Positions 536-15,281 of a DNA stretch of 32,000 bases are shown here, one piece after another (the first letter of the stretch is position 1; each line of letters opens with the position of its first letter). This DNA comes from Acaryochloris marina MBIC11017. Its GTDB lineage: Bacteria > Cyanobacteriota > Cyanobacteriia > Thermosynechococcales > Thermosynechococcaceae. The translations under genes were made by a program, and so were the position numbers. Below the pieces are notes generated by a model. That model saw only the letters and a list, made by a program, of their open reading frames with translations. It searched no databases and was not told where the DNA came from. Location of the stretch: positions 270,001 to 302,000 of the forward strand of contig NC_009927.1 of assembly GCF_000018105.1 (NCBI RefSeq), given 5' to 3'.

Positions 536-964
536 TCAGTTTTCATCACCCCAAACCCTACTCACCCTTTCCCGCTCCAACCACACCCCGATCATCTCGA
601 TAGTTTCCCCTGGCCGCAGACTCAAAACCTGCAACACATCGAACTTGACCTCTAACTCCAAGGCGCACTCATAGCAAAACTTGGGCGTTTCAAACGGAAT
701 TCTGATGAATGGCTTACCACTGCCTTCGACGGTGATCAAATATTTCCCTGAACTGCTTCGGGAAACGGCCAAGTACTCAAGCTGGCCCTCTAGCTTGGTC
801 TGCTGAACCAGATTCTTTTGCTTGCTCTCAAGTTTATGAAATTTGGACTCAAATGCTCTGGAGACTCTAGAGGGCCGTGTTCTGCCTGCTGTATACCGAG
901 CGGAATACCTTCGCTGTGTGCTCCGAGTATGGCCTAAAACGACCGAAGCTGCGATATGGGGCAA
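536..964 (-). CDS. hypothetical protein, 5' end probably disrupted by the transposon end
   Basis: 142-aa ORF whose only N-terminal ATG lies inside the transposon terminal repeat (931-991). The first ~45 aa are basic low-complexity; the C-terminal ~95 aa look protein-like. No family recognised. Confidence 0.3.
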   Translation of the reverse strand: MPHIAASVVLGHTRSTQRRYSARYTAGRTRPSRVSRAFESKFHKLESKQKNLVQQTKLEGQLEYLAVSRSSSGKYLITVEGSGKPFIRIPFETPKFCYECALELEVKFDVLQVLSLRPGETIEMIGVWLERERVSRVWGDEN

Positions 965-991
965 TTTAGTATAGATGTACTTAAATGAGAG
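931..991. repeat. left terminal inverted repeat of the Tn3-family element
   Basis: GGCCTAAAACGACCGAAGCTGCGATAT followed by GGGGCAATTTAGTATAGATGTACTTAAATGAGAG. The GGGG-initiated ~34-nt part resembles the classic Tn3-family IR layout. A near-perfect inverted copy lies at 8780-8840. Confidence 0.75.
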
Positions 992-1012
992 GCGATTCTG
1001 TCACAATTACCG

Positions 1013-1513
1013 TCAGCCCTCCTTCTCCACATGGAGCGCTTTTAGGGCTTGATAAGCCGTTCCACAATACGGACAGAATCGATGCTTGAGAGACGCAATC
1101 CGTTCATCACAATTGACACATCTGTCTCGAAGTTGCGTACCGCAAACATAGCAGTATTGAGCACGGCTATGAAGCCAGATTGAATCTGGAGGCGTTCCCG
1201 GCCGCCAACAGTGAGGGCAAAACCGAATCCCTTGGTTGGGACTAACCACCGTTCCACGACAGACCGCATCAAGATAATCACTGGGAATTTGGAGGGCAGC
1301 TGCTAATCCTTGTTTCGTTTTCCGATTCAAGGAACTGGTTTTATTGCGTTCTAGCTTGCCATAGCTTTGGGCATGGACCCCTGCCTTTATCGCCACTTCC
1401 TTTTGGGACAAACCGAGCGTTGTTCGGAGACGATGGACATAATCACCCAAGGATTCTCCAGCTTGTGGAACCGAGCTAGATTCTAAACGCTGCATTACAA
1501 GCTTACTCATCAA
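1013..1513 (-). CDS. XRE-family helix-turn-helix protein with C-terminal double zinc-ribbon
   Basis: N-terminal HTH signature (LRTTLGLSQKEVAIKAGVHAQSYGKLERN). The C-terminus carries four CxxC pairs (CPHCW, CYVCG, CVNCD, CPYCG). Divergent from the recombinase gene inside the transposon. Confidence 0.7.
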   Translation of the reverse strand: MMSKLVMQRLESSSVPQAGESLGDYVHRLRTTLGLSQKEVAIKAGVHAQSYGKLERNKTSSLNRKTKQGLAAALQIPSDYLDAVCRGTVVSPNQGIRFCPHCWRPGTPPDSIWLHSRAQYCYVCGTQLRDRCVNCDERIASLKHRFCPYCGTAYQALKALHVEKEG

Positions 1514-1576
1514 TCATTCATCAGAGGTATACTTCATGCGGCTGTTGGAGCCTTAAGACTTAACAGAAAGATCATC

Positions 1577-2473
1577 ATGTCCAAGCCTTTGGCAATGGTT
1601 ACAACCGAGTTTTTAGATCGCCCTGGCTTAGCTGCCAGCACGGTTCGCTCCTACGAATTCACCTTATTGCCTTTGCTTCAACAATATGGTCAGTGGTCCT
1701 TAGAATTACTCGACCGACAGACCCTAGAAGAATATCTCAATTCCTTGAGCCATCTATCGTTCAAGACTCATCATCGTCACCAAGCCATCCTACAAGCACT
1801 CCTCAACTTTGCAGTTGAGCAAGGATACCTGCGGTCTAATCCAATGACCCGTATGAAACGGCGTAAGCCAGATCCTGCTAAAGGAGAGCATGACTCAGAC
1901 CAGATCATTCGATACCTAACCCCAGACCAACTACAGCTGCAATACCAACTGGTCAGCAAAGATGCTCGTACTGCGGCTCTTGTCCGCTTACTTCATCGCA
2001 CCGGTGCCCGCATTTCTGAGCTACTTAGCTTAGACCTTGAAGCACTGGATCTGGAACAGCGCAAGTTCCAAGTGATTGGCAAAGGCAACCGACAACGGTG
2101 GTGTTTTTACAGTGAAGATGCAGCGGAAGTTTTGCAGAAATATTTGGCAGAGTATCGGCACCCCGGATCTCCGGCGCTGTTTACCGCACAGCAATACTTA
2201 AGTGACCAGGTGAATCGACTCAGTTATCGGAGTGCCCACCATAATTGGAAGCAGCTCATCAAGGGCCATCCAACATTAGCTGGAACTCGGCTCCATGATC
2301 TGCGCCATACATTTGCCACCGAGAGAGTGGGCATCATCGCCCTAGAAGAGCTCAGGGCCTTGATGGGTCATCAGAGTATTCAGACAACCTTGCGCTACCA
2401 AAAGGTCACTTCTGAGCAAGCACAAAATGCGGCTCAAAGAGCCTTCGATAAACTCTCTCAAACCACCCTTTAA
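1577..2473 (+). CDS. tyrosine site-specific recombinase (TnpI/XerC-like, likely cointegrate resolvase of the transposon)
   Basis: 298 aa with catalytic signature TGARISELLSL (Arg), HDLRHTFA (His-x-x-Arg) and GHQSIQTTLRY (His...Tyr). It sits just upstream of tnpA, as in tyrosine-recombinase Tn3-family members such as Tn4430. Confidence 0.85.
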   Translation: MSKPLAMVTTEFLDRPGLAASTVRSYEFTLLPLLQQYGQWSLELLDRQTLEEYLNSLSHLSFKTHHRHQAILQALLNFAVEQGYLRSNPMTRMKRRKPDPAKGEHDSDQIIRYLTPDQLQLQYQLVSKDARTAALVRLLHRTGARISELLSLDLEALDLEQRKFQVIGKGNRQRWCFYSEDAAEVLQKYLAEYRHPGSPALFTAQQYLSDQVNRLSYRSAHHNWKQLIKGHPTLAGTRLHDLRHTFATERVGIIALEELRALMGHQSIQTTLRYQKVTSEQAQNAAQRAFDKLSQTTL

Positions 2474-2678
2474 GGAGAGTTTGGTATTCCCTGAGAAATT
2501 GTCTTTATCTATGTCTATACAAGAATAGAGCCAAATTTAGAGAGTATGGACAGTACTGTGCAAGTGCAGACTATGAGTCAATTTAAAAGCCTGGGATCCT
2601 TGCTAAGGGCTACAGCAATAGCGGGACATACATCTTTGGATTCATCTGCAAAATCCGCTATCTTGTCGCGAGTGAGGA

Positions 2679-4844
2679 ATGAGTGGAGCAAGCGATATGA
2701 AGCGTCAATGGCAACCAGATGAACTGATTGAATCCTTCATTCTGTTGCCCAATGAGTTGGCGCTTATTCCCAATTATCAGACCAACGCCACGGAGCATAA
2801 CCAGCTGGGTTTCGCTGTTCTGCTGAAATTCTTTCAACTTGAAGGTCGCTTCCCCAAGCACCTGGGCGAGATTCCTCAGATCGTTGTGGAGTTCATTGCC
2901 AAACAACTAAAGCTGACGCATCAAAGCTTGGTTGATTACAAGTGGAAAGGCCGGACTATCAAGGAGCATCGAGCTATCATCCGTTCCTTTCTCGGATGTC
3001 GTCCCACCCAGCGACCCGAAAAGAAGTCATTGATGACCTGGCTCAAAGAGAAAGTGATGCCTCTGGGGCTCCATTTGAATGCGATTCGAGAGCAAGCCTA
3101 TCAACGTCTGCGTCACCTTAAGCTTGAACCCCCTTCCCCCAAAGAATTGACCCGGCTTATCAGCTCAGCTGCCCACAACCATGAACAGGACTTTTGCCAA
3201 ACCATTGCGGCACGACTCCCAGCAGATACTCGAAAAAGGATGGATGCTTTATTAGAAACAGAATTCACCCGAGACCATGAGGAAAGTCAGTTCCGGCAGT
3301 CCGACTTCAACCGTCTCAAGTCAGATCCGGGGCGTCTAGGCCTGAAAAGTCTCTTCAATGAAATCGATAAGCTGCAAAGTATCCGACAGATTCAGCTGCC
3401 TACAGATCTATTTGCCTCCTATTCTCCTAAGCTGATTGAGCAATATCGGCGTCGAGCCTCAGCCGACCTGGCGGGACGCCTACGCCGCCACCCAAAGGCC
3501 ATTCGCTACACTCTCATTGCTTCGTTCTGTTATCAACGCGAAAAAGAGATCACTGATAATCTAGTCGATTTGCTAGTCCAGATCATCCATCGTCTTAGCA
3601 TCAGTGCCGAGCGTCGTGTAGAGCGAGAACTGATCGCTAATTTCAAACGCGTCAATAATAAAGAGGCCCTTCTATACCGAATTGCGGAAGCGGCCTTAGC
3701 CAATCCAGATCAACCCGTTAAAGAGGTGATCTTTCCGGTCGTTAGTCCCGATAAATTGACTAACGTAATTGAGGAGCGAAAACGAACCGGCATTACCTAC
3801 CGAGAAAAAGTGAATGTCAAGATTCGAGCCTCTTATTTGCATCACTATCGGCGGATGGTGCCGGCCATTTTGGAGACCCTGGATTTTCACTCCAACAACA
3901 AGCAGCATCGCCCTGTCATTGAGGCCATTGAATTGCTCAGGCAGTATCAGGGCAGTGGAAAGCGATACTTCACTGAGGATGAAAAGGTGATCACCACTGG
4001 TGTCCTAAAAAGCGGTTGGCGCGAGCTCGTCATCGAATCCAATTCCAAAGGCCAAGACCAGGTCAACCGCGTCAACTATGAAATCTGTGTCTTGCAAACG
4101 CTGCGAGACACACTGCGCTGTCGTGAAGTGTGGGTGATGGGTGCCAAACGCTACGGGAATCCTGATACGGATTTACCCCAAGATTTTGAAGCTCAACGAG
4201 AGCAGTACTATTTAGAACTCAACCAACCCTTGGATGCTGAAGCCTTCGTCACGAAACTGAAACTGGATATGACGGCAGCTCTGTCCTCCTTAAATACGAG
4301 CATCCCCAACGATCCACAGGTCAATATTCTGTCCCGAGGTAACGGCTGGATTAGTGTTACCCCCTACCCGGCTCAAGAGGAACCCAGTAATATCCACAAA
4401 CTGAAACAGGAGGTGGCGAAACGCTGGCCAATGACCAGCTTGTTGGACATCCTCAAGGAAACGGACCTGCGCGTTAATTTCACGGATCAGTTTCATACTG
4501 CAGCCTCCCGCCAACAGCTCCACGGTCCTACACTGCAAAAACGGTTATTGCTCTCTCTGTTTGGCTTAGGGACCAACATGGGCCTCAAACGAGTCTGTGC
4601 TGGGATTGCTGATGAAAGCTATCCCAATTTGCTCTACGTTAAACGTCAGTTCCTGCACCGAGAACATCTGCGCAATGCCATTGGTGAAGTTGTAAATGCC
4701 ACCCTCAAAGCTCGGTTGGGAAACCTTTGGGGAGAGGCGACAACGGCCTGTGCTTCTGACTCCAAAAAGTTTGGAGCGTGGGACCAGAATCTAATGACCG
4801 AATGGCACAGCCGTTATGGGGGCCGGGGTGTGATGATCTACTGG
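2679..4844 (+). CDS. tnpA: Tn3-family DDE transposase, exon 1 (722 codons)
   Basis: Long ORF ending ...[14 protein letters not shown], immediately followed by the GTGCG intron 5' end at 4845. The start may instead be the ATG at 2697 ([10 protein letters not shown]...). Confidence 0.85.
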
Positions 4845-5473
4845 GTGCGATTCGTTGGCTAGAAACTAGACCTGAATAGGGTTTGAGGGGATTAGCCGCA
4901 AGCGTAAAGAAGGGGAAAATATCCCAACTGTACCTTGACAACTTAATAGCCATATAGGTGAGAGTCAGTATCCTAGACCGCTCTAGTCCTATCCCGCAGG
5001 TGCAGCGGTGACAGCATTTCCCCCAGGTTCGCGACTAGCCATCAACGCCTGAAGCGGGGAAAAAAGGAGGTAACAGGGAGCCTAGCTCTGAACCCCTTCG
5101 AGCAAGAACTTATGAGTAGCGAAAGCGAAGATGTGGTTAACCCACCGTAATCATTAACCAGCGAAATTAGGTTGATAACGCTGGGAGTCCCAAAAGGGCA
5201 AGGATATACGGAGCTGGCGTGTCCAGTAGCGACCAGTTAGCACTTCCAATAAACCCGGTGGAGCGCATCACTCTAACAGTTCAATCAATGGCTATTAGGA
5301 ACGAAGTAACCCCCGCCTATCTCTCTTGGAGGTCGATTGGCTAAGAGTAGGTGCTAACCAGAAGTTAGGCGGTGGGAAGGATTGGGTCAAAAGCAAAAGC
5401 CCCACTGTAATGGTGAGGATAAGCAGACAGACTCACGGTGACTTGGAATGAATAGGAACAAGTAGCAATAAAT

Positions 5474-7204
5474 ATGTCTAAAGCACGGGTCAAACCGATG
5501 ATGGAATGGAGCGCAATCCCCTGGCCAAAACTAGAGCGGAAAGTGTTTAAGTTGCAAAAGCGCATATTCAGAGCCAGACAACGTGGCGATGTCAAAGTAG
5601 TACATAGACTCCAGAAAACTCTGATGAGGTCCTGGTCAGCCAAATGCCTTTCAGTTAGACGGGTCACACAAGACAACCAGGGAAAAAAGACGGCAGGTGT
5701 GGATGGAGTTAAATCTCTGTCCCCAGAAGCTCGTCTGCCCCTAGTGGGTCAACTTAAACTCGGCTCAAAGGCCCCTCCCACCAGACGGGTGTGGATTCCT
5801 AAACCAGGAAAAGACGAACAACGTCCTTTGGGTATACCGACCCTGTATGAAAGGGCAAGAATGACACTAGTCAAACTAGCCCTGGAACCTGAATGGGAAG
5901 CGGTTTTCGAACCAAACTCCTATGGTTCAAGACCAGGCCGTTCATGTCATGACGCGATAGAACAAATTTTTGCAGCCATTAAACAGAAAGCAAAATATGT
6001 GTTGGACGCTGATATAGCCCAATGTTTTGACCGAATAAACCACGAAGCACTGCTCAAAAAGCTGAAGACCTTTCCCACTCTACGCCGACAAATAAAAACT
6101 TGGCTAAAAGCTGGGGTAATTGATGGTCATCAGTTCTTACAGACATCTGAAGGAGCACCTCAAGGGGGGACTATCTCTCCTTTGTTGGCAAATGTAGCCC
6201 TCCATGGCCTAGAGTATCGAATCAAGCAAGCCTTTCCTATCAGAAAGATTGCCGACGGGAATAAGCGAAAAAGAATTGCTACTCCTGATGTCATTCGATA
6301 CTGTGATGACTTCGTGATTCTTCACGAGGATTTATCCGTAGTTCAAAGATGTCAGAGCTTAGTTCATGAGTGGCTAAAAGACATGGGGTTGGAACTAAAA
6401 CCTAGCAAAACGCATATATCCCATACTCTCAAAAGGTATGAAGCTGAAAACCCTGGATTTGATTTTCTAGGATTCTCAGTTAGACAATTCCCGGTCGGTC
6501 AACATCAATCGGGGAGATTATGCGGGACATTGCTGGGATTTAAGACCATCATTACCCCCAGTCGAAAGAAGCAAAAAGTACATTACAATCGGCTCGTTAG
6601 TATCATCAACGCCCATAAGGCAGCGCCGCAAGCGGCATTAATCCGCCACCTCAATCCCGTGATTAGAGGATGGACGAGATATTATTCGACCATGGCTAGT
6701 AAAGAGACCTTCTCCCGTCTAGACCATTTACTGTATCAAAAGCTTCAAACATGGGCTAACCACCGCCATCCTGGCAAATCCAGGAAATGGGTGGTGAATA
6801 AATATTGGCAAACTGTCGGGGGAGATAAATGGGTCTTCGCGACTAGAGTAACTAAATCTAGAACCGAAAAATTACTCAAACATCGACAGACTCCAATTAT
6901 CCGCCATGTCAAAGTCAAGGGGGATGCAAGTCCCTACAATGGCAATCTAGTTTACTGGAGTTCAAGGACTGGGAAGCATCCAGAAGCTCCGAAGAGAGTA
7001 TCTATGCTCTTGAAGAAGCAGAAGGGGAAATGCGCTCAGTGCGGCATGTTCTTCCGAGAAGAAGATTTACTTGAAGTGGATCACATTCTCCCTACATCAA
7101 TGGGAGGATTGGACGTATACAAGAATCTTCAACTACTACACAGACATTGTCATTATGTTAAAACGGCCAAGGAGAAGTCCTCTCAGGCCAAATGGTATGT
7201 ATGA
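5474..7204 (+). CDS. group II intron reverse transcriptase/maturase with C-terminal HNH endonuclease domain
   Basis: 576 aa. RT motifs include RRVWIPKPGKDEQRPLGIPTLYERA, VLDADIAQCFDRINH, GAPQGGTISPLLANVAL and IRYCDDFVILH (YxDD). The maturase X region has RGWTRYY. The HNH part reads CAQCG...EVDHILP...NLQLLHRHCH. Confidence 0.93.
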   Translation: MSKARVKPMMEWSAIPWPKLERKVFKLQKRIFRARQRGDVKVVHRLQKTLMRSWSAKCLSVRRVTQDNQGKKTAGVDGVKSLSPEARLPLVGQLKLGSKAPPTRRVWIPKPGKDEQRPLGIPTLYERARMTLVKLALEPEWEAVFEPNSYGSRPGRSCHDAIEQIFAAIKQKAKYVLDADIAQCFDRINHEALLKKLKTFPTLRRQIKTWLKAGVIDGHQFLQTSEGAPQGGTISPLLANVALHGLEYRIKQAFPIRKIADGNKRKRIATPDVIRYCDDFVILHEDLSVVQRCQSLVHEWLKDMGLELKPSKTHISHTLKRYEAENPGFDFLGFSVRQFPVGQHQSGRLCGTLLGFKTIITPSRKKQKVHYNRLVSIINAHKAAPQAALIRHLNPVIRGWTRYYSTMASKETFSRLDHLLYQKLQTWANHRHPGKSRKWVVNKYWQTVGGDKWVFATRVTKSRTEKLLKHRQTPIIRHVKVKGDASPYNGNLVYWSSRTGKHPEAPKRVSMLLKKQKGKCAQCGMFFREEDLLEVDHILPTSMGGLDVYKNLQLLHRHCHYVKTAKEKSSQAKWYV

Positions 7205-7223
7205 CAAGCACCAAGCCACTGAG

Positions 7224-7257
7224 GAGCCGTGTAAATCGAAAGATTTACGCACGGTTT
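7224..7257 (+). ncRNA. group II intron domain V
   Basis: A 34-nt hairpin, GAGCCGTGTAAATCGAAAGATTTACGCACGGTTT, with the AGC catalytic triad at positions 2-4 and a GAAA tetraloop. Confidence 0.8.
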
Positions 7258-7298
7258 TGAAGCCAAGTCGGAGGAGTGATCCTCCGGCTTAGGTTAAC

Positions 7299-8117
7299 CA
7301 CGTTGAAAAGAAGTCGTTGTGCGTCTACTCGCAACTGAAAAACTGTTCCTCTTCTGAGGTTTCATCCATGCTCACTGGGCTGTTGCGACACAACACAGAT
7401 CTGAAGCTGGAGAAGAACTATGTTGATACTCATGGCCAGAGTGAGCTGGGCTTTGCCTTCTGCCATCTTCTGGGGTTTCAGTTGATGCCCCGTTTCAAAC
7501 GCATTGGTGTTCAAAAGCTCTCTTTGCCAGAGGCAGGAACGAAAGCAGCCTATCCCAATCTCAAGCTGATATTGTCGAAGGCGATTGACTGGGATCTGGT
7601 GGCTCAGCAGTATGACCAAGCCATCAAGTACGCGACGGCATTGAGGTTGGGGACGGCTGAGGCGGAAGATATTTTCCGGCGCTTTGGGAATGCGGAGATT
7701 CAGCATCCGACGCATAAGGCACTGCTGGAGATAGGCAAGGCGGTCAAAACTATTTTCCTGTGTCAGTATCTATCGTCTGAAGCACTCAGAGTGGAAATCA
7801 ATGAGGGGCTGAATGTGGTGGAACGATGGAATGGGGCCAATGACTTTATCTACTTTGGTCGGGGTGGTGAGTTCGCGACCAATAAGCGGGAGAATCAAGA
7901 GCTGTCGGCACTGGCCTTGCACCTGCTTCAAGTCAGTATGATCTACATCAATACGCTGATGATTCAGAATGTGCTCAGTGAACCACAATGGATGCAGAGA
8001 ATGAAAACAGAGGACTTGAGGGCTTTGTGCCCCCTGATCTGGAATCATGTGACGCCCTATGGATGGTTCAATCTTGATTTCACACAACGGATGGCACTCG
8101 ATGTTGCCTGGAGGTAA
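7299..8117 (+). CDS. tnpA: Tn3-family DDE transposase, exon 2 (272 codons + stop)
   Basis: The in-frame continuation HVEKKSLCVYSQLKNCSSSEV...VDTHGQSELGFAFCHLLGFQLMPRFK matches the conserved catalytic-domain pattern of Tn3 transposases (Y-x-HV..., DTxGQS, LLG..LMPR). Confidence 0.85.
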   Translation, partial: HVEKKSLCVYSQLKNCSSSEVSSMLTGLLRHNTDLKLEKNYVDTHGQSELGFAFCHLLGFQLMPRFKRIGVQKLSLPEAGTKAAYPNLKLILSKAIDWDLVAQQYDQAIKYATALRLGTAEAEDIFRRFGNAEIQHPTHKALLEIGKAVKTIFLCQYLSSEALRVEINEGLNVVERWNGANDFIYFGRGGEFATNKRENQELSALALHLLQVSMIYINTLMIQNVLSEPQWMQRMKTEDLRALCPLIWNHVTPYGWFNLDFTQRMALDVAWR

Positions 8118-8119
8118 AC

Positions 8120-8182
8120 CTAAATGGATGTAATTGCTTAGTACTAAATGGTGCGATATCGCAGCTTCGGTCGTTTTAAGCC
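8120..8182. repeat. right terminal repeat of the transposon (outer part conserved, inner part degenerate)
   Basis: The outer 27 nt (8156-8182, ATATCGCAGCTTCGGTCGTTTTAAGCC) match the inverse of 931-957 with one mismatch. Of the inner part, only the 8-nt core (TACTAAAT at 8142-8149, inverse ATTTAGTA in the left IR) is retained and the GGGG is lost. Confidence 0.55.
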
Positions 8183-8229
8183 TATCTCTGACAGTGCTCT
8201 CAGGTTAGGCGGGTCGTCTATCTCGATGG

Positions 8230-8568
8230 TCATGGCTCCCCCTCTACAAGCTTTTCGGCTGCGATGTGATAGTACATCTCGTAGTCTTCGCGCTCATCTT
8301 TCCCCCACTGTTTGTGGTCGTACTCGTCAGAGCGGCCTTTCTGCACGTACTCACTGAATTCGTAGTGGACGTCAACGGAACCCGTCACACAGAACACTAT
8401 TGTCCCAGCTTCTTCGTAAGCGTCTACGCTCAGGTCAAAGTTATCGAAGTCGGCAGTGACTGAGGCATCGCCTTCAATGGGGTTGCCCTGGTGTCCATTA
8501 GCAGCTTCTATGTCTTCCTGGGCTCGTTCTAGCACGTATTCATCGGTGATGTGAACGGGTCGCTTCAT
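8230..8568 (-). CDS. hypothetical acidic protein
   Basis: 112-aa ORF rich in D/E, lying between two transposon-end copies. No family recognised. Confidence 0.4.
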   Translation of the reverse strand: MKRPVHITDEYVLERAQEDIEAANGHQGNPIEGDASVTADFDNFDLSVDAYEEAGTIVFCVTGSVDVHYEFSEYVQKGRSDEYDHKQWGKDEREDYEMYYHIAAEKLVEGEP

Positions 8569-8640
8569 GGTTTCTTCCCGGGGAGGTGGTTATGGGCCTG
8601 TGGTTGTGGAATGATCTCGGAAATAATTGTAATGTTATTA

Positions 8641-8840
8641 GACCTAAAACGACCGAAGCTGAGATGGGCCAATGACGTTGCTCAAGCATCGATTCTGTCC
8701 GTATTGTGGAACGGCCTATCAAGCCTCAAAAGCACTCCATGTGGTGAAGGAAAGCTGCCGGCAATAGTGGCAGAATAGTCTCTCATTTAAGTACAAATAT
8801 ACTAAATTGCCCCATATCGCAGCTTCGGTCGTTTTAGGCC
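8641..8840. mobile_element. miniature Tn3-derived inverted-repeat element (TIME-like) or second transposon end
   Basis: 8641-8673 resembles 931-965 in direct orientation. 8681-8840 is an inverted copy (~85-90% by eye) of 931-1090, including the IR and the 3' end of the XRE/zinc-ribbon gene (LKHRFCPYCGTAYQA...). The flanks are tATTA / gATTA. Confidence 0.6.
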
Positions 8841-9355: not shown

Positions 9356-9697
9356 TTATTTAGAGGGCTGTAGATAGTTCTCTAGCGCTTCAGTTACAAG
9401 AGCATTGAGATTGATTCCCCGCTGCTGAGCTGCGATCGCAGCCCGCCTATGAAGTTGAGTTCCAGGTCTAATATTGAAGCTGCCTTTGAAGGGACGTTCA
9501 GGCTCAATCTCGTTTTCAGTACAATCAGCAAGATATTCATCAACGGCTCCATGAAAAGCAGATTTCAAAGATTGAACATCAGTACCCTCATAGCTAATCA
9601 GGCTGCGGATGAACTCAACCTTCCCAAAAAATACTTCATCCTCATCACTGAAATTCACAGAGCCAAAGTAGCCTTGGTATTCCATCATATTTTTCAT
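9356..9697 (-). CDS. hicB: HicB-family antitoxin
   Basis: 113 aa with the pattern YQGYFGSVNFSDEDEVFFGKV...EGTDVQSL...AVDEYLADC...PFKGSFNIRPGTQLHRRAAIAAQQRGINLNALV, typical of HicB. It overlaps hicA by 4 nt. Confidence 0.85.
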   Translation of the reverse strand: MKNMMEYQGYFGSVNFSDEDEVFFGKVEFIRSLISYEGTDVQSLKSAFHGAVDEYLADCTENEIEPERPFKGSFNIRPGTQLHRRAAIAAQQRGINLNALVTEALENYLQPSK

Positions 9698-9960
9698 AGC
9701 AGCCCCTCCTGCTCAAGAATGTCCATGACTTGTTCAATCTGATACTTCTTTAATATTTTTTTTGGATGGGGTTTATGAAGGCTGATCACAAGCCCCTCTT
9801 CATTAATGAAGCGTCTTCCAGAACCACCCGTTTTACCCGTCGATACTTCAGAGAATTGAAAAAAGGAAAGCAACAAAACTAACTCGTCCCAGGTAAAGTC
9901 TTTGGGCCGTGTGAGAAAGCGTTTAATCAGCTTCTCTTTTCGAGTCATATTGGAGGTCAA
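9694..9960 (-). CDS. hicA: HicA-family mRNA interferase toxin
   Basis: 88 aa with KLIKRFLTRPKDFTWDELVLLL...GGSGRRFINEEGLVISLHKPHP...KKYQIEQVMDIL, matching the HicA/YcfA-like pattern. It lies upstream of and overlaps hicB. Confidence 0.8.
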   Translation of the reverse strand: MTSNMTRKEKLIKRFLTRPKDFTWDELVLLLSFFQFSEVSTGKTGGSGRRFINEEGLVISLHKPHPKKILKKYQIEQVMDILEQEGLL

Positions 9961-9992
9961 AACTGCTTATATTATCTCTGATGCCACAGGAA

Positions 9993-10016
9993 CTTGCAAC
10001 TAAAAATAGTTGCAAG
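9993..10016. promoter_or_regulatory. 9-bp inverted repeat between the upstream operon stop and the hicA start (terminator or operator)
   Basis: CTTGCAACT - AAAAAT - AGTTGCAAG, located 33 nt upstream of the hicA ATG and 9 nt downstream of the 10025 stop. Confidence 0.3.
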
Positions 10017-10024
10017 CAGTCAAT

Positions 10025-10672
10025 CTACCTCTGACTTACCCGAAGAGACTGGCTATAGAATCCTCCTCGCTGCTCCACCCGAAATCCACCCAAAAGCACC
10101 CCGATCAACACAGCCACGGGCGCAAAACCAAGCCCTCGCGCTAAGTCACCGAACAACACAGCATCCTCTTTACCCTCAAGAAAGTCATGGATCGCACCCA
10201 CCCAAGCGCCAACATCCTCCTCATGGCTGACCTTCAGAGCAACCGCCTCCCCACTCTCTAGCTCATCCACAAATTCCAACACATCATCCTTGCTAACCTC
10301 ACCCACGACGGACTCCACAGGCTTCCCCGTGAACCCATGACGTTGCTTCCGTGACTTCGGCTGACGGCAGAGATCCGACACGTCGAGGAACATGGTCTCT
10401 TGAACCAACCCGGCCAAGAAGTCATCATCCAGCACTGGTCCTTGGGTATTATGTCGATCCTCCCAATCCTGGATCAGCAGTTCTGCTCGTTGACAGACAA
10501 CATCAGCAATGTCCCTGATCGCATCCCCAGCTACCCGAAGCTGTTCATGTGATGACCGACCTTGCAAATGCTGATCGAGTGATGCACACATCAGGGAAAT
10601 ATCAGCTTGTTCCGGTTCATCCAAAGCAGAGGCCAAAGCACTGGCAAAATCTAGCTCAAGCTGTTTGAACAT
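10025..10672 (-). CDS. hypothetical acidic protein with hydrophobic C-terminal segment
   Basis: 215 aa. The ATG overlaps the upstream gene by 17 nt. A C-terminal stretch GLGFAPVAVLIGVLLGGF looks like a TM helix. No family recognised. Confidence 0.5.
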   Translation of the reverse strand: MFKQLELDFASALASALDEPEQADISLMCASLDQHLQGRSSHEQLRVAGDAIRDIADVVCQRAELLIQDWEDRHNTQGPVLDDDFLAGLVQETMFLDVSDLCRQPKSRKQRHGFTGKPVESVVGEVSKDDVLEFVDELESGEAVALKVSHEEDVGAWVGAIHDFLEGKEDAVLFGDLARGLGFAPVAVLIGVLLGGFRVEQRGGFYSQSLRVSQR

Positions 10673-11186
10673 GGCGCTTATCCTTCAGTGGACAGTCCAC
10701 AATTTCGCACTCAGAAGGCTCCATGCGAATCGGCGGTTCAAACTCTGTAATTCCGTATCGTTCTCGTAGTACCCTCAGCACCTCTTTCAAATACCGATTA
10801 ACTTGAGTATTGGTCATCCCCATACAATGGACAGCTTCAATTTCCGCTAACTTCTCACTCCCCTGCCAGACACTGACGGCCATGGCATGGAGATGGGCAT
10901 CCTTGGGTTTCTCCTTGTAGAGGTAGAGTAAAGCTACTGGAGGGGCTTGGACGGGAATCGAAAAGGTTTCTGTGGTCTCGGCTGGTGCTGGTTTTGAGTT
11001 CCTATCCCTGTAATGTGCTCGTTGTTTTTCATTGTTCTCCCTGCGATGCCGATAATGCGATCGCTTCCGGGGGCAAGTCTTAGGATTCCAACAAGCCGTT
11101 GTCGTTTCAGGTCCGTGGAGTGAGATCGCTTCCTTTTGGGAAAGCTTCGAGCACTCTAAACAAAGCTTGTTGATAGGGCGTCCCAT
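10656..11186 (-). CDS. hypothetical protein: N-terminal Cys4 cluster plus basic tract
   Basis: I trimmed the 240-aa ORF to the ATG at 11186, which lies 1 nt after the vapC stop and is preceded by GGAGGAGG. It has CLEC...C..KTC followed by RKRSHYRHRRENNEKQRAHYRDR, and a C-terminal helical part (TNTQVNRYLKEVLRVLRERYGI). No family recognised. Confidence 0.5.
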   Translation of the reverse strand: MGRPINKLCLECSKLSQKEAISLHGPETTTACWNPKTCPRKRSHYRHRRENNEKQRAHYRDRNSKPAPAETTETFSIPVQAPPVALLYLYKEKPKDAHLHAMAVSVWQGSEKLAEIEAVHCMGMTNTQVNRYLKEVLRVLRERYGITEFEPPIRMEPSECEIVDCPLKDKRHVQTA

Positions 11187-11187
11187 C

Positions 11188-11598
11188 TCAAGCCTCCTCC
11201 TGCCAGTTTTCCCAGGCCAGACCATCCACCCGTGAAAACTCCCGAACATTATCCGTGACCAGGGTGAGGTCGTGAACCAGAGCAATGGCTGCAATTTGCA
11301 AATCATAGGGACCAATGGGAGTGCCCTTCGCTGCAAGAGCTGCCCGGATCTGGCCACAGACTTTGGCAACCTCGTCATTAAACGGAATCGATTGGAACTG
11401 GCGATAGAAAAGCCTGAGACGTTCTAAGTTAGCCTGTCGTTTGACACTTTTATAAGCGCCATAGAACAATTCACTCTTCACCGGAACGCACAATCTAATA
11501 TCAGCAGGAGTGTATTGTGCTAAACGCTTTGCAATTGCAGAGTCCTGGTTAGCCTTAAGCAGTTGGATACAGGCGTTTGTATCCAGTAAATAGGTCAT
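11188..11598 (-). CDS. vapC: PIN-domain toxin VapC
   Basis: 136 aa with PIN acidic residues in LLDTNACI, KSELFYG, YDLQIAAIA and LVTDNVREF. It overlaps the upstream antitoxin by 4 nt. Confidence 0.9.
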   Translation of the reverse strand: MTYLLDTNACIQLLKANQDSAIAKRLAQYTPADIRLCVPVKSELFYGAYKSVKRQANLERLRLFYRQFQSIPFNDEVAKVCGQIRAALAAKGTPIGPYDLQIAAIALVHDLTLVTDNVREFSRVDGLAWENWQEEA

Positions 11599-11837
11599 GT
11601 CCAGTCCTCACGGATCTCAAACTCGCCCTGATCGGATCGCGTCAACTCTCCCTCCCAACTGCCGATCACATCTGAAAAGAAACCCGGTTGCCATTCTGTA
11701 GTGGTGGGGGCAGAGGATTCAGCCGGAGACAGTAGAACCGTCACCTCTAAATCGGCATCCGCAAACTCCGTGGGCACCTCTAAGCGAAGAACGCCATCGG
11801 CACCCACATGGGAGCGAATCGAAATGGGTTGGCTCAT
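11595..11837 (-). CDS. VapC-associated antitoxin (VapB-like)
   Basis: 80-aa ORF overlapping vapC (ATGA). The call rests on gene order, size and the C-terminal W.GE..R..QGEFE.RE tail common in cyanobacterial PIN partners. Confidence 0.65.
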   Translation of the reverse strand: MSQPISIRSHVGADGVLRLEVPTEFADADLEVTVLLSPAESSAPTTTEWQPGFFSDVIGSWEGELTRSDQGEFEIREDWT

Positions 11838-12033
11838 CGATCACCTAGTTCTCAAAAGTCAACAATGAGGCGATGGCTCTGAAGGTCTTGGGTGAAACAT
11901 GCCTCTGAACTAGTGTACAAGTCGCCCTTCTGATATGACATATTTTAATGTAATTTTTAATGTAAATAAGATATTAGACACATATTTTATGTTGAAATTC
12001 TCTCCTTCAAATAAAGGATGAATTTTCGTAGGT

Positions 12034-14256
12034 TTAGAACTGAGGGGGTAGGAACATCTGCTGTCGGATGGCATTCCAATCATTTACCGAGAGGCCACTC
12101 GCTTGTTTACTGCAGTCGATCATGAGCTGGCAGGTTGAGAAGTAGTTGGTAAGCATTTGCAGGTCATCTTTGGACAAATCAAAGAGTTCTTGAGAGATAT
12201 TTAGAGACGAGCTGACTATTGATGTGAGTCCTTTAGATGAAGTTTTTAAGGCATGTGATGAATTTTTTAGACATGAGATGAGGGTTTGAAGTTCAACATC
12301 TACCATTAGTTTCTTATCCAGGGCAAATTGGGCCATGGCGAGAACGTTGCCGCGAGCGAAAGCGCTGGCCAGAGCGAGGTCGCTTGCGAGGGTGTCGTCG
12401 AGGGCATGGTCGAGGGCGACGTCCAGATTGAGGCCGCTTGAGAGGTTGCTTGCGAGGGCACGAACACTGGCGAGGTCGCCAATGGTGGCTATGGCTTTGG
12501 CTCGTTCGCTTTCACGTAAGCTGGCGATGACACTTGCACTGCTGGCAAAGCGTTCCCGGTCGCGGTCGCGGGCAAGGGCGACATCGAGGGCGAGAGCAAG
12601 GTCTAAGTCGAGAGCGAGGGCGAGAGTGAGGGCAATGGTGAGGTCAAAGATTAATATTAGGGTAAATACTCGTCTAATCTCACCAGAAAAGTCACTGATA
12701 GCAGTAGATGTCTTTGACTCAACCCAGGCTAGCAATCCGCTTAATTTAGGGTATTCAGAAAGCGCTTGAGTTTGTTCTTCCAATTGTTGCAAGAATTCGA
12801 TCGCAGAATGTCCTTTCAGCTCAGTTACGAGAAGAAAGACTCCTCGCCAATGCTTATCTGCGGCATGATTCTGAATTAATTGATCTTCGTAGCTCCAGTT
12901 TCTAATATACTCAGCGCAAAGATGTTCTTGAAGCGTTAGGTGAGAGAAAGAATAAATATCTGTAGCCTGCTTGACTAAGATCCCCGACTGCACTGCGATC
13001 TCTTCCATCAGTTTATTGACATCAAGATGCTTGGAGACATTCAAATTATTGGTCAAAAAGGCTGTAATCTGCTCAGCTAATTCATCTTTTTCAAAAAAAA
13101 GCTTGTCTTCTTCAAAGCCAACATAGGCGATTGACGCCAGCATATCTTTTTTTATATCAGCGCTGAAATCTTGATAGATTTCCCAGTTCTCATCCATTAA
13201 TTTTGAATTGGCCCAATCTTTTAATGAGAAGTCTAGTGCCTTGGAATAGAGTTTGGCCTGATTGTCGATAATTGTCTTTCCCTGTCGGCAGACTAAACAG
13301 ATGAACGCCAGCAGCAACGGGGTTTGGGGTAGTTCCTTCGTATAAATAAAGTCAGGTTCTTTGAGTTGTTCCCAAATCGTATTTACATATTCTGCCTTTT
13401 TCTCACGGGTCAGTTGGGGGTTGGGATCAGCATCAAACCATTTTTTGATGAATTCAAAGATCTGATCATCATCAAGTTCTGCAATAGCAACCGTTTTAAA
13501 TCCAGTGAAGTAAGTGGGATAAGCAGCGATTCGGCAGGAGGTAATAAATCGATTATTAGAGTATCGGTCTGAGAAATCTATAATGGATTGAACCACTTGA
13601 TTGAAACTACCGCTGAGTACTTCATCTAGTCCATCCAAGAGAATCAGAAAATCACCTGATTTGAGGGCATGATCAGTAAATTGTTCTGGTTTAGGAAAAC
13701 CACAAATCTCAAACTCTTCAGCAATAGATTTTTTGAGGTCTAGGTCTGGATCTCGTAATCGCTTCAAGTCCAAAAATACGGGAATTTTCTCATGGTCGTA
13801 ACTTTCCACATTCCTAAGTAGGGCTGCTAAGCCAACTTTACGGAGATAGGTGGTTTTACCAATCCCTGGACCGCCCAACACGCAGAGATATTGCTCTGTG
13901 TTTTCAACCGCTATCCCTTTCTGTTTAGCCTCTGTTTGCTGCCATAAATATCTTTGATGGGCTTCTCGGTATACTTTTTCTAGTCTTTCAATACTCTCTA
14001 GAATTTTGACCGTCTCAGCATCCATCATCTTGACGTTGGTGTAGATGTCATCAAAGGATATGGACTGCGACATCCCTAGTACTTGGATCTGACCATGACG
14101 CTTATAGTAATTTTGAGCATAGATCTCTGACAAGTTGTATATTTGCTGTTCTACTGATATCAGAGGCTGATTTTCAAGGAATTGACCAAAGACTTTGAGA
14201 CTAATACTAACAAGTCCTGTTACAGCAGTTTCTAAAGTTTTTCCCTCCAGTGACAC
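12034..14256 (-). CDS. NACHT-domain STAND NTPase with helical/low-complexity C-terminal region
   Basis: 740 aa. Walker A is VLGGPGIGKTTYLRKV and Walker B is FLILLDGLDEV. It has the NACHT-type FSHLTLQEHLCAEY motif, a pre-NACHT RHGQIQVLGM...FDDIYTNV segment, and a C-terminal Ala/Leu/Asp-rich segment and tail (...TNYFSTCQLMIDC...IRQQMFLPP). Confidence 0.9.
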   Translation of the reverse strand: MSLEGKTLETAVTGLVSISLKVFGQFLENQPLISVEQQIYNLSEIYAQNYYKRHGQIQVLGMSQSISFDDIYTNVKMMDAETVKILESIERLEKVYREAHQRYLWQQTEAKQKGIAVENTEQYLCVLGGPGIGKTTYLRKVGLAALLRNVESYDHEKIPVFLDLKRLRDPDLDLKKSIAEEFEICGFPKPEQFTDHALKSGDFLILLDGLDEVLSGSFNQVVQSIIDFSDRYSNNRFITSCRIAAYPTYFTGFKTVAIAELDDDQIFEFIKKWFDADPNPQLTREKKAEYVNTIWEQLKEPDFIYTKELPQTPLLLAFICLVCRQGKTIIDNQAKLYSKALDFSLKDWANSKLMDENWEIYQDFSADIKKDMLASIAYVGFEEDKLFFEKDELAEQITAFLTNNLNVSKHLDVNKLMEEIAVQSGILVKQATDIYSFSHLTLQEHLCAEYIRNWSYEDQLIQNHAADKHWRGVFLLVTELKGHSAIEFLQQLEEQTQALSEYPKLSGLLAWVESKTSTAISDFSGEIRRVFTLILIFDLTIALTLALALDLDLALALDVALARDRDRERFASSASVIASLRESERAKAIATIGDLASVRALASNLSSGLNLDVALDHALDDTLASDLALASAFARGNVLAMAQFALDKKLMVDVELQTLISCLKNSSHALKTSSKGLTSIVSSSLNISQELFDLSKDDLQMLTNYFSTCQLMIDCSKQASGLSVNDWNAIRQQMFLPPQF

Positions 14257-14476
14257 TGTTCTCTAATCCCCCAATAATATTGACTTTGATTATTATTAAT
14301 TGAATACGTTGATTCTCATATATTCCTTGGATTTAATTCATAAAAAGCATGAGCGATAGAGTAGGAAAGATGTATATATTTCTCTTCTTATTTGTTACTC
14401 AGCCTGCATAATAAACCTCAAAATTGCCGTACTTCTTCCCAATAATTTTTATGATATCTGGCTGCAATGCCATTGA

Positions 14477-14499
14477 TATGTTATTACAGTATGTTATAA
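14477..14499 (+). promoter_or_regulatory. candidate operator: tandem direct repeat upstream of the antitoxin gene
   Basis: TATGTTATTA cag TATGTTATAA, 26-48 nt upstream of the 14525 ATG. AbrB-type antitoxins commonly autoregulate through such repeats. Confidence 0.25.
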
Positions 14500-14524
14500 C
14501 GTTGGTATTGCTTGGTTTAGCGCT

Positions 14525-14848
14525 ATGACTGATAAAACTTACAAGGCATCTTGGGCCAAAATTGGGAATTCCTCTGGCTATCGGATCACGAGTGATTTCT
14601 TCCGGGAACATCCCGAGTTCGTTGGTTCAGATGGGGTTATCCAAGTCATTGCCCCAGACACCGTTGTCTTTTCACGCGCGAAGACGGAGGAAGAAGGCCA
14701 GGAGGAAGATGATCTAATGCTCAGTCTCTACCTGGACTTTCTAACCAAACAGGCCCTCGCTAACCCTGATGAGTTGGAAGAATATACTCAGGACATGGCC
14801 GATGAGGACGAAGAGTTAATCGCGGGTGTGATCCTCGATGCTGATTAA
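14525..14848 (+). CDS. prlF: AbrB/SpoVT-fold antitoxin, PrlF-like
   Basis: 107 aa. The N-terminus AKIGNSSGYRITSDFFREHPEF resembles a swapped-hairpin DNA-binding fold, and the C-terminal tail is acidic. It overlaps the YhaV-like toxin gene. Confidence 0.65.
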   Translation: MTDKTYKASWAKIGNSSGYRITSDFFREHPEFVGSDGVIQVIAPDTVVFSRAKTEEEGQEEDDLMLSLYLDFLTKQALANPDELEEYTQDMADEDEELIAGVILDAD

Positions 14849-15281
14849 TGACTGGAATATTTACTTTCTCAAACGCCTGTTTGGACAACAACGTTTGGCA
14901 TTAAGGACTGAAGTAAAGCGACTGAAAGCCACTCTACCGCCAGAAGACTATGTACGCCATCCCCAGGTGAAGCTCTATGCTGCTACCATGCAGGCGATCA
15001 AAGCGAAAATTCCAGCCGATCCCTTTGCGTCTCATTTTGCGTTGACTGGACCTCTCAAGAAGTTTGGTCGGGTGAAAAAGATGGGGATTCCTAATCGATA
15101 TCGGTTATTTTTTCGAGCGTTTAAAGTCCCTGAAAGTCAGTCCATCTTCGTCCTATGGTTGGGTTATCCCCGTAAGGAAGGTGATAAGAAGGATTGCTAT
15201 CGAGCGTTTCGAAAAATGGTTGAGCGGGGTGATTTCCCTGATTCTTTGGATGATTTGATGGTTGAAAGTGAGCAAGGTTGA
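14838..15281 (+). CDS. yhaV: YhaV-family ribonuclease toxin
   Basis: 147 aa. RYRLFFRAF, ...IFVLWLGYP... and DCYRAFRKMVERGDFP match, from memory, the E. coli YhaV motifs RYRLFFRY and DAYTVFSKMLKRGHPP. Confidence 0.7.
   Translation: MLINDWNIYFLKRLFGQQRLALRTEVKRLKATLPPEDYVRHPQVKLYAATMQAIKAKIPADPFASHFALTGPLKKFGRVKKMGIPNRYRLFFRAFKVPESQSIFVLWLGYPRKEGDKKDCYRAFRKMVERGDFPDSLDDLMVESEQG

Follow-up and report, generated by a model that had tools for sequence, protein, structure and literature searches.

Bacterial group II introns typically reside in other mobile elements, and RmInt1 of Sinorhizobium meliloti, with its homing site in the insertion sequence (IS) ISRm2011-2, is the standard example (PMC4181065). 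The transposase of an ISRm2011-2 copy invaded by RmInt1 needs splicing. The related elements of several hosts have become occupied through a mix of vertical and horizontal transfer (PMC4181065). In this study, we analyzed a 32,000-nucleotide (nt) plasmid segment from Acaryochloris marina MBIC11017 (contig NC_009927.1, positions 270,001 to 302,000; hereafter the window), in which a Tn3-family transposon of about 7.9 kb (~930-8840) houses a transposase gene, tnpA, that is split by a group II intron. Our reading, to which we give a probability of about 85%, is that a complete and mobile intron of the IIB type retrohomed in the sense orientation into this tnpA and that it would splice and retrohome in vivo.

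As with RmInt1, the homing site in A. marina lies inside another transposable element, and the transposase of the invaded copy is predicted to need splicing. RmInt1, a class D IIB3 intron of a small IS, has an intron-encoded protein (IEP) without an endonuclease domain. In A. marina, in contrast, the IEP carries an HNH domain and is closest to the chloroplast-like (CL)/IIB1 T.el4h protein, and the host is a replicative transposon of the Tn3 family, 7 to 8 kb in length, with the intron site in the DDE catalytic core. Ll.LtrB interrupts the relaxase gene ltrB of lactococcal conjugative elements, and transfer of those elements depends on its splicing. It resembles the present case in that a mobile group II intron interrupts a key mobility enzyme of another mobile element, but it is a IIA (mitochondrial-like) intron in a relaxase, whereas the A. 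marina intron is of the IIB type and lies in a DDE transposase. TeI4h of Thermosynechococcus elongatus and EcI5 of E. coli, which are mobile introns of the CL/IIB1 class, share with the window intron the IIB type and targeting through the exon-binding sites EBS1, EBS2, and EBS3 (PMC2882425). TeI4h also has a cyanobacterial host, and its IEP, which likewise has reverse transcriptase (RT), X, and HNH domains, is the closest solved one. However, its RT motif is YADD and that of the window intron is YCDD, and the T. elongatus introns have diversified their EBSs and occupy many genomic sites, whereas the lineage described here keeps one site. The transposon itself is similar to Tn4430 and other Tn3-family transposons of the TnpI type, with a TnpA of ~1000 amino acids (aa) containing DDE_Tnp_Tn3, an upstream tyrosine recombinase gene, and terminal inverted repeats (IRs) of ~40 bp. 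It differs from them in its intron-split tnpA, an extra gene for a helix-turn-helix (HTH)/zinc-ribbon protein, and a duplicated or nested right end, and a 5-bp target duplication was not seen. IStrons, in which group I introns occur in IS607/IS605-type transposons, likewise combine a self-splicing intron with a transposon (PMC10690162), but their group I ribozymes are fused to transposon ends and splice the whole element from host transcripts, whereas here a retromobile group II intron lies inside the transposase coding sequence. Our literature search found no specific report of group II introns in Acaryochloris or in the tnpA of a Tn3-family transposon; an earlier entry in a group II intron database is possible. 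The window intron adds to a known pattern, and what is modestly novel is a small lineage that appears to target one invariant catalytic-core segment of divergent Tn3 transposases and to spread horizontally.

The two exons and the intron are arranged as follows.

2679..4844, plus strand: tnpA exon 1, 722 codons, encoding the N-terminal region (DUF4158) and the beginning of the DDE/RNase H-like domain with catalytic D694
4845..7298, plus strand: group II intron, 2454 nt, GUGCG...AC, putatively of the IIB/chloroplast-like type
7299..8117, plus strand: tnpA exon 2, 272 codons plus stop, with catalytic D765 and E897; its first base, C7299, is the intron-binding site IBS3

Exon 1 ends in ...GTGATGATCTACTGG at 4844, and the intron opens with GTGCG at 4845; the intron ends in ...GGTTAAC at 7298, and exon 2 restarts with CACGTTGAAAAG, which encodes HVEK. 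The ligated exons are expected to read ...ATCTACTGGCACGTTGAA... across the junction. Both exon lengths are multiples of 3, and the conceptually spliced product is a protein of 994 aa with the junction ...GGRGVMIYW/HVEKKSLCVYSQLK. This protein has a DUF4158 match and one unbroken Pfam match to DDE_Tnp_Tn3 (PF01526, 1-389/389) that spans the junction, and over residues 38 to 980 it is colinear with Tn4430 TnpA, whose structure is solved (E 2e-75). The consensus of uninterrupted homologues also runs through the junction, with M, Y, and W invariant. Alignment to the catalytic triad of Tn4430 TnpA, D679/D751/E881 (PMC9579193), places the triad of the window protein at D694 (exon 1), D765, and E897 (both exon 2). 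The intron site falls between the first and second of these residues, in the RNase H-like catalytic domain. When the intron is retained, the frame stops 5 codons into it (GTG CGA TTC GTT GGC TAG, with TAG at 4860-4862), giving a 727-aa product that keeps the N-terminal region and, of the triad, D694 only. Because the unspliced frame ends there and D765 and E897 are in exon 2, production of active full-length TnpA from the window copy is predicted to require splicing. A preliminary description of this locus had gone further and made the mobility of the transposon depend on splicing as well. The split frame and split triad bear out the dependence of TnpA production, but the claim about mobility ignores complementation in trans by the TnpA of another copy. 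No second Tn3-family transposase able to act in trans is present among the large open reading frames (ORFs) of the window; a TnpA encoded elsewhere in the cell could act on the transposon in this way. In the NCBI annotation, exon 1 is a truncated 'Tn3 family transposase', the IEP is ltrA, and exon 2 is unannotated.

Alleles without the intron agree with these boundaries. A plasmid of Acaryochloris sp. 'Moss Beach' encodes the closest TnpA without an interruption (P0001, 986 aa, 93% identical), and the Moss Beach DNA (L003, L004) aligns to the conceptually ligated exons with 0 gaps, reading ...GTAATGATCTACTGG/CACGTTGAAAAG... at the junction. A metagenome contig with 87% nt identity and the same terminal IR (L085) likewise lacks the intron and is contiguous with 0 gaps, and all of these alleles run uninterrupted across ATGATCTACTGG/CACGTTGAAAAG. 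A query spanning the 5' junction matched 242 PLSDB plasmids in either its exon half or its intron half; the exon-side alignments end exactly at 4844, and just two plasmids, both from A. marina, match across the junction. Of the 120 best TnpA homologues, almost every one is full length, which indicates that intron occupancy is low. Viral contigs scanned for the exon-intron junction yielded 0 hits, and genome contigs returned no further near-identical intron copies (best IEP identity 64%) in a scan from which the source genome was possibly masked or absent. The boundaries, the empty-site alleles, the Rfam match, and the IEP described below all agree with the proposal of the preliminary description that a complete group II intron splits a Tn3-family tnpA in frame and in the sense orientation, as does the spliced product of the predicted size (~994 aa) with its restored conserved junction.

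The catalytic RNA and the protein encoded within it comprise the following parts.

4845..5473, plus strand: ribozyme domains I-III and the 5' side of domain IV (RNAalifold, 26 homologous introns)
5474..7204, plus strand: IEP, 576 aa, with RT (motif YCDD), maturase/X, and HNH endonuclease domains (NCBI start 5498/5501)
7224..7257, plus strand: domain V, with AGC triad, 2-nt bulge, and GAAA tetraloop (Rfam RF00029; fold)
7259..7296, plus strand: domain VI; the branch-point A at 7291 is bulged and lies 7 nt from the 3' splice site (Rfam, fold)

The intron termini, GTGCG (4845-4849) and ...AAC (7296-7298), fit GUGYG/AY, and relatives have GTGCG or GTGTG. Domains V and VI match Rfam RF00029 at 7222-7298 over model positions 1-77/77, with 48.2 bits against a gathering score of 40. 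This segment folds into both expected hairpins (z = -6.9), with the AGC at the base of domain V and A7291 bulged, in keeping with the hallmarks noted earlier. For the 5' part of the ribozyme, we used an IEP-based scan that recovered 80 related cyanobacterial loci (IEP identity 52-64%), whose 5' ribozyme parts are homologous to 4845-5473. The RNAalifold consensus of 26 homologous introns contains 93 pairs, 78 of them with compensatory changes, and shows the closing helix of domain I (D1), the stem that presents EBS1, and the helices of D2 and D3. The Rfam models for D1-D4, which cover other classes, gave no match to the intron even at E <= 1, and D5 is a sub-threshold best match to a plastid D5 family.

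The IEP lies between D3 and D5, in domain IV, and has the Pfam domains RVT_N, RVT_1, GIIM (X), and HNH, in line with the RT, X, and HNH domains first recognized in it. Its nearest solved homologue is the T.el4h maturase/RT (6me0), which it matches over nearly its full length (residues 11-562, E 2.5e-101) with the YxDD and HNH residues retained; LtrA (IIA) and IIC RTs match far more weakly, at about 1e-31. The T.el4h intron is CL/IIB1 (PMC2882425), and the window intron is probably a group IIB intron of the chloroplast-like, CL/IIB1 type, where the CL/IIB1 part of the assignment rests on the nearest solved homologue and not on a phylogeny. Comparison with sister introns gives a ratio of nonsynonymous to synonymous substitution rates (dN/dS) of 0.09-0.13 for the IEP, indicating purifying selection. 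The RT motif is YCDD (6296-6307, IEP residues 275-278) in all IEPs of the tnpA-resident lineage, and YADD is found in 110 of the 120 best IEP homologues.

Recognition of the target site by base pairing would involve five short segments.

4831..4837, plus strand: IBS2 (TGATGAT), pairs with EBS2
4838..4844, plus strand: IBS1 (CTACTGG), the last 7 nt of exon 1, exact complement of EBS1
5150..5156, plus strand: EBS2 (ATCATTA)
5223..5229, plus strand: EBS1 (CCAGTAG), loop of stem GCTGGC/GACCAG
5263..5263, plus strand: EBS3 (G), pairs with IBS3 C7299

The preliminary description had paired EBS1 CCAGTAG (5223-5229) with the end of exon 1 (4838-4844) and had matched ATCAT (5150-5154) to ATGAT (4833-4837) as EBS2/IBS2. 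The first pairing is exact, and CCAGTAG occurs once in the 5' part of the intron; the second extends to 7 bp with one G.U (ATCATTA, 5150-5156, with TGATGAT, 4831-4837). Both covary in relatives. We compared the EBS loops of the 26 relatives, which sit at unrelated genomic sites, with their own 5' exons and found runs of >=5 bp in 18 of 26 for EBS1 (27% with foreign, swapped exons) and in 22 of 26 for EBS2 (19% with foreign exons). The position of EBS3, absent from the earlier account, was located through alignment column 699 (G5263), which is Watson-Crick to the first base of the 3' exon in 18 of 22 relatives, as against 14 of 22 for the runner-up column. Because the pairing is EBS3-IBS3 and not the delta-delta' of IIA introns, it marks the intron as IIB. 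Two sister introns at tnpA sites, those of L087 and L089, show compensatory changes in both longer pairings. Their IBS1/EBS1 is TTATTGG with CCAATAG (CTACTGG with CCAGTAG in the window), in which an IBS1 change of C to U is met by an EBS1 change of G to A, and their IBS2/EBS2 is TCATGAT with ATCATGA (TGATGAT with ATCATTA in the window), in which an IBS2 change of G to C is met by an EBS2 change of U to G.

The base directly 3' of EBS3 G5263, position 5264, is C in the window and A in plasmid pREC1 of A. marina MBIC10699 and in all sister introns at the tnpA site.

Because the ribozyme is intact and covarying, the EBS/IBS pairs are conserved, and the IEP is under selection (dN/dS about 0.1), we infer that the window intron can splice, and the earlier impression that it looks splicing-competent is strengthened by these data and by the compensatory EBS/IBS changes in sisters. 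We propose a model in which the target was recognized through EBS2/IBS2 (7 bp), EBS1/IBS1 (7 bp), and EBS3/IBS3 (1 bp). Transcription of tnpA would yield a precursor from which the ribozyme, helped by its own RT/maturase, excises as a lariat through branch point A7291, and ligation of the exons would restore the 994-aa TnpA. If splicing fails, the 727-aa product lacking two catalytic residues would be all that can be made. The intron ribonucleoprotein (RNP) could then invade intron-less tnpA alleles, with the HNH domain serving second-strand cleavage, and the intron would ride along on the transposon and its conjugative plasmids.

The preliminary description overlooked that the intron belongs to a lineage specialized on the tnpA site. 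The closer relatives of its IEP (78-97% identity) all come from contigs in which an intron interrupts a Tn3-family tnpA at the identical position, ...MIYW/HV.... These are L086, L087-L093, and L094, to which L095 was added by scanning metagenomes for the junction sequence. The target site is ATG ATY TAY TGG / CAY GT, and occupied sites differ from one another at third codon positions only. The 15 nt that pair with the intron code for the invariant peptide V-M-I-Y-W/H, and the homing site has stayed constant because this peptide, rich in low-degeneracy codons, is encoded there. One explanation for the shared position is a single entry into an ancestral tnpA followed by vertical co-divergence with the transposon family, and the finding of the same insertion site in every member of the lineage fits such a history. 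However, identity among the host TnpAs is only 52-54%, with synonymous sites saturated, but reaches 78-80% among the IEPs (dS 0.9-1.6) and 86-88% among the ribozyme parts. The L086 intron is 96.4% identical to that of the window, but its exon 2 only 71.5%. Moreover, the TnpAs nearest to that of the window (93% and 87%) are intron-less. Since intron and IEP are far less diverged than the genes that host them, we rejected co-divergence and consider a single ancient entry highly improbable. Instead, the intron appears to be much younger than the divergence of its host tnpA genes and to have moved horizontally between distant Tn3-family transposons by homing into the same site, such that the site, and not any particular transposon, is the probable niche of the lineage.

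The same distribution bears on the possibility that the intron serves as a regulatory gate, in which inefficient or conditional splicing throttles transposase production, the 727-aa product may bind the IRs as an inhibitor or immunity factor, and the host or plasmid gains a tamed transposon. The product of the unspliced frame is indeed well defined, at 727 aa with DUF4158 and a single catalytic residue of the three, and there is a precedent for the idea in the suggestion that group II introns such as RmInt1 restrain their host elements (Chillon et al. 2010, as cited in PMC4181065). However, the horizontal spread among unrelated tnpA genes and the low occupancy fit a selfish element better than a selected regulator. 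We regard this function as unlikely and favor retrohoming of a mobile intron into a conserved site.

Not all members of the lineage are intact. Two JGI metagenome contigs (L096:173-~610 and L097:756-~1195) carry at the same tnpA site an internally deleted intron remnant of ~440 nt. A short GGAGC repeat marks the point where its first 370 nt run directly into domains V-VI, and EBS1, D2-D4, and the ORF are missing. Exon 2 is frameshifted in L086 and disrupted by an IS in L087.

Several other arrangements were seen at related loci. L096 holds a second, more distant group II intron downstream of the remnant. In L087/L088 (458-2128, minus strand), tnpA adjoins a gene for a 556-aa protein with a ResT/TelK catalytic domain (PF16684) in place of the usual resolvase or TnpI, and this protein may serve as a resolution module of a kind uncommon in Tn3-family elements. 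In Anabaena sp. WFMT (L005, 1339-6269), two related group II introns are apparently nested in a twintron-like manner, with 5' ends at 1339 and 2386 and D5/D6 ends at 4905 and 6269. Planktothrix paucivesiculata PCC 9631 (L016) has three group I intron matches (Rfam RF00028, up to 99.7 bits; 429-693, 3589-3907, and 3980-4253) interleaved with group II introns within a few kilobases.

The transposon around the split tnpA has these further parts.

931..971, plus strand: left terminal IR (GGCCTAAAACGACCGAAGCTGCGATATGGGGCAATTTAGTA), 41 nt; the inverted copy at 8800-8840 and the IR of intron-less relative L085 are identical to it
1013..1513, minus strand: gene for an HTH and double-zinc-ribbon protein, part of the transposon module (Pfam HTH_31/HTH_3/DZR); the same gene adjoins intron-less relatives
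1577..2473, plus strand: tyrosine recombinase gene, putative TnpI-like resolution module (Pfam Phage_integrase; annotated as tyrosine-type recombinase)
8146..8186, minus strand: inner right IR, directly after the tnpA stop; corresponds to the transposon end in intron-less relative L085
8800..8840, minus strand: outer right IR, where homology to the pREC4 copy stops

The terminal IRs of 41 nt (931-971 and 8800-8840), with the inner copy at 8146-8186, are of the size expected for the Tn3 family (~38-40 bp). The tyrosine recombinase gene adjoins tnpA as a candidate module for cointegrate resolution. We found no 5-bp target-site duplication at the outer IRs (flanks AGTAT and GATTA), at the inner IR, or at the pREC4 copy, and later recombination between copies could account for this. 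The right end is compound. The inner Tn3-type IR is followed by a minus-strand ORF of 112 aa without a Pfam match (8230-8568) and then by an element of ~200 bp (8639-8840) framed by the same IRs (8639-8665 and 8816-8840). The interior of this element resembles the left end of the transposon, forming a 181-nt inverted repeat (931-1111 with 8660-8840, 87%), and it looks like a miniature Tn3-derived (TIME-like) element or a passenger captured between two right ends.

Downstream of the transposon, the RefSeq annotation of the near-identical pREC1 shows, in the region 9356-15281, a dense run of toxin-antitoxin genes (HicA/HicB, VapC, YhaV-type) and a gene for a NACHT-domain NTPase (12034-14256, minus strand). 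Genes for a large tyrosine integrase and a WD40 protein come after these.

The window differs from pREC1 at one base (5264) over 16.3 kb. Plasmid pREC4 (L002) of the same strain, A. marina MBIC10699, carries a second copy of the transposon, with homology from ~930 to 8840. The pREC1 and pREC4 copies are identical over 2369-8559, a tract that runs from the 3' end of the recombinase gene through tnpA with its intron into the downstream ORF, and they have diverged in the flanks, by ~3.6% in 930-2368 and ~12% in 8560-8834. The identical tract between differing flanks makes these copies mosaics and indicates, as judged from sequence, recombination or gene conversion (module exchange) between two related transposons. 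We considered whether the two copies prove that the transposon moved with its intron in place, or that the intron retrohomed recently, and rejected this, since the central tract is identical and the flanks differ.

Several observations weigh against the view that the window carries a working, recently mobile intron. Splicing, lariat formation, and retrohoming of this copy, together with any effect on the rate of transposition, are predictions from sequence. The RT motif is YCDD in place of the usual YADD, and the nearest solved homologue stands in for a phylogeny in the proposed CL/IIB1 class. The missing target-site duplication takes away one sign of recent transposition of the window copy, and in the MBIC10699 copies the last event looks like homologous recombination or gene conversion and not like transposition or retrohoming. 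Finally, sister copies are decaying (L096/L097, L086, L087), so residence in tnpA is not always compatible with a working transposase. In the extreme case, the window intron would be a dead insertion that no longer splices, tnpA would be a split pseudogene, and the transposon would be immobile unless another TnpA acted in trans. In addition to the missing duplication and the sister decay (the intron deletion in L096/L097, the frameshift in L086, and the IS insertion in L087), the C at 5264 beside EBS3, where every relative has A, and the NCBI annotation of merely a truncated transposase favor this possibility. On the other hand, the two exons keep an open, in-frame reading and align with intact TnpAs along their full length, none of the ribozyme hallmarks or EBS/IBS pairings is lost, sisters show compensatory changes, and purifying selection acts on the intact IEP ORF. 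The intron also differs by <=1 nt between strains and copies, which leaves little time for decay. A dead insertion thus seems to us quite improbable, and a functional intron that splices out of the tnpA transcript remains the favored reading.

A broader scenario, which we offer as speculative and on balance doubtful, would join these elements into a parasite-on-parasite regulatory circuit. In it, a lineage specialized on the Tn3 catalytic core would use the codon-constrained segment V-M-I-Y-W/H-V as a 'universal' homing site, move between transposons with aa identity as low as 52%, and have these and their plasmids as vehicles. Splicing would gate transposition, and the 727-aa protein translated from unspliced mRNA would bind the IRs, as an inhibitor or as an immunity factor.

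That bacterial group II introns nest in mobile DNA is textbook knowledge, and this locus leaves general concepts unchanged. For annotation, the 'truncated' Tn3 transposase and the unannotated downstream fragment are best read as one intact intron-split gene, and transposons of this kind should not be counted as dead. The intron also offers a tractable system in which to ask whether splicing limits transposition, with an empty site available in a sister strain and an IEP close to the solved T.el4h protein. For the biology of these elements, the tnpA-resident lineage would be a clean natural example of a retroelement that chooses a protein-constrained target in another mobile element, as homing endonucleases and inteins do.

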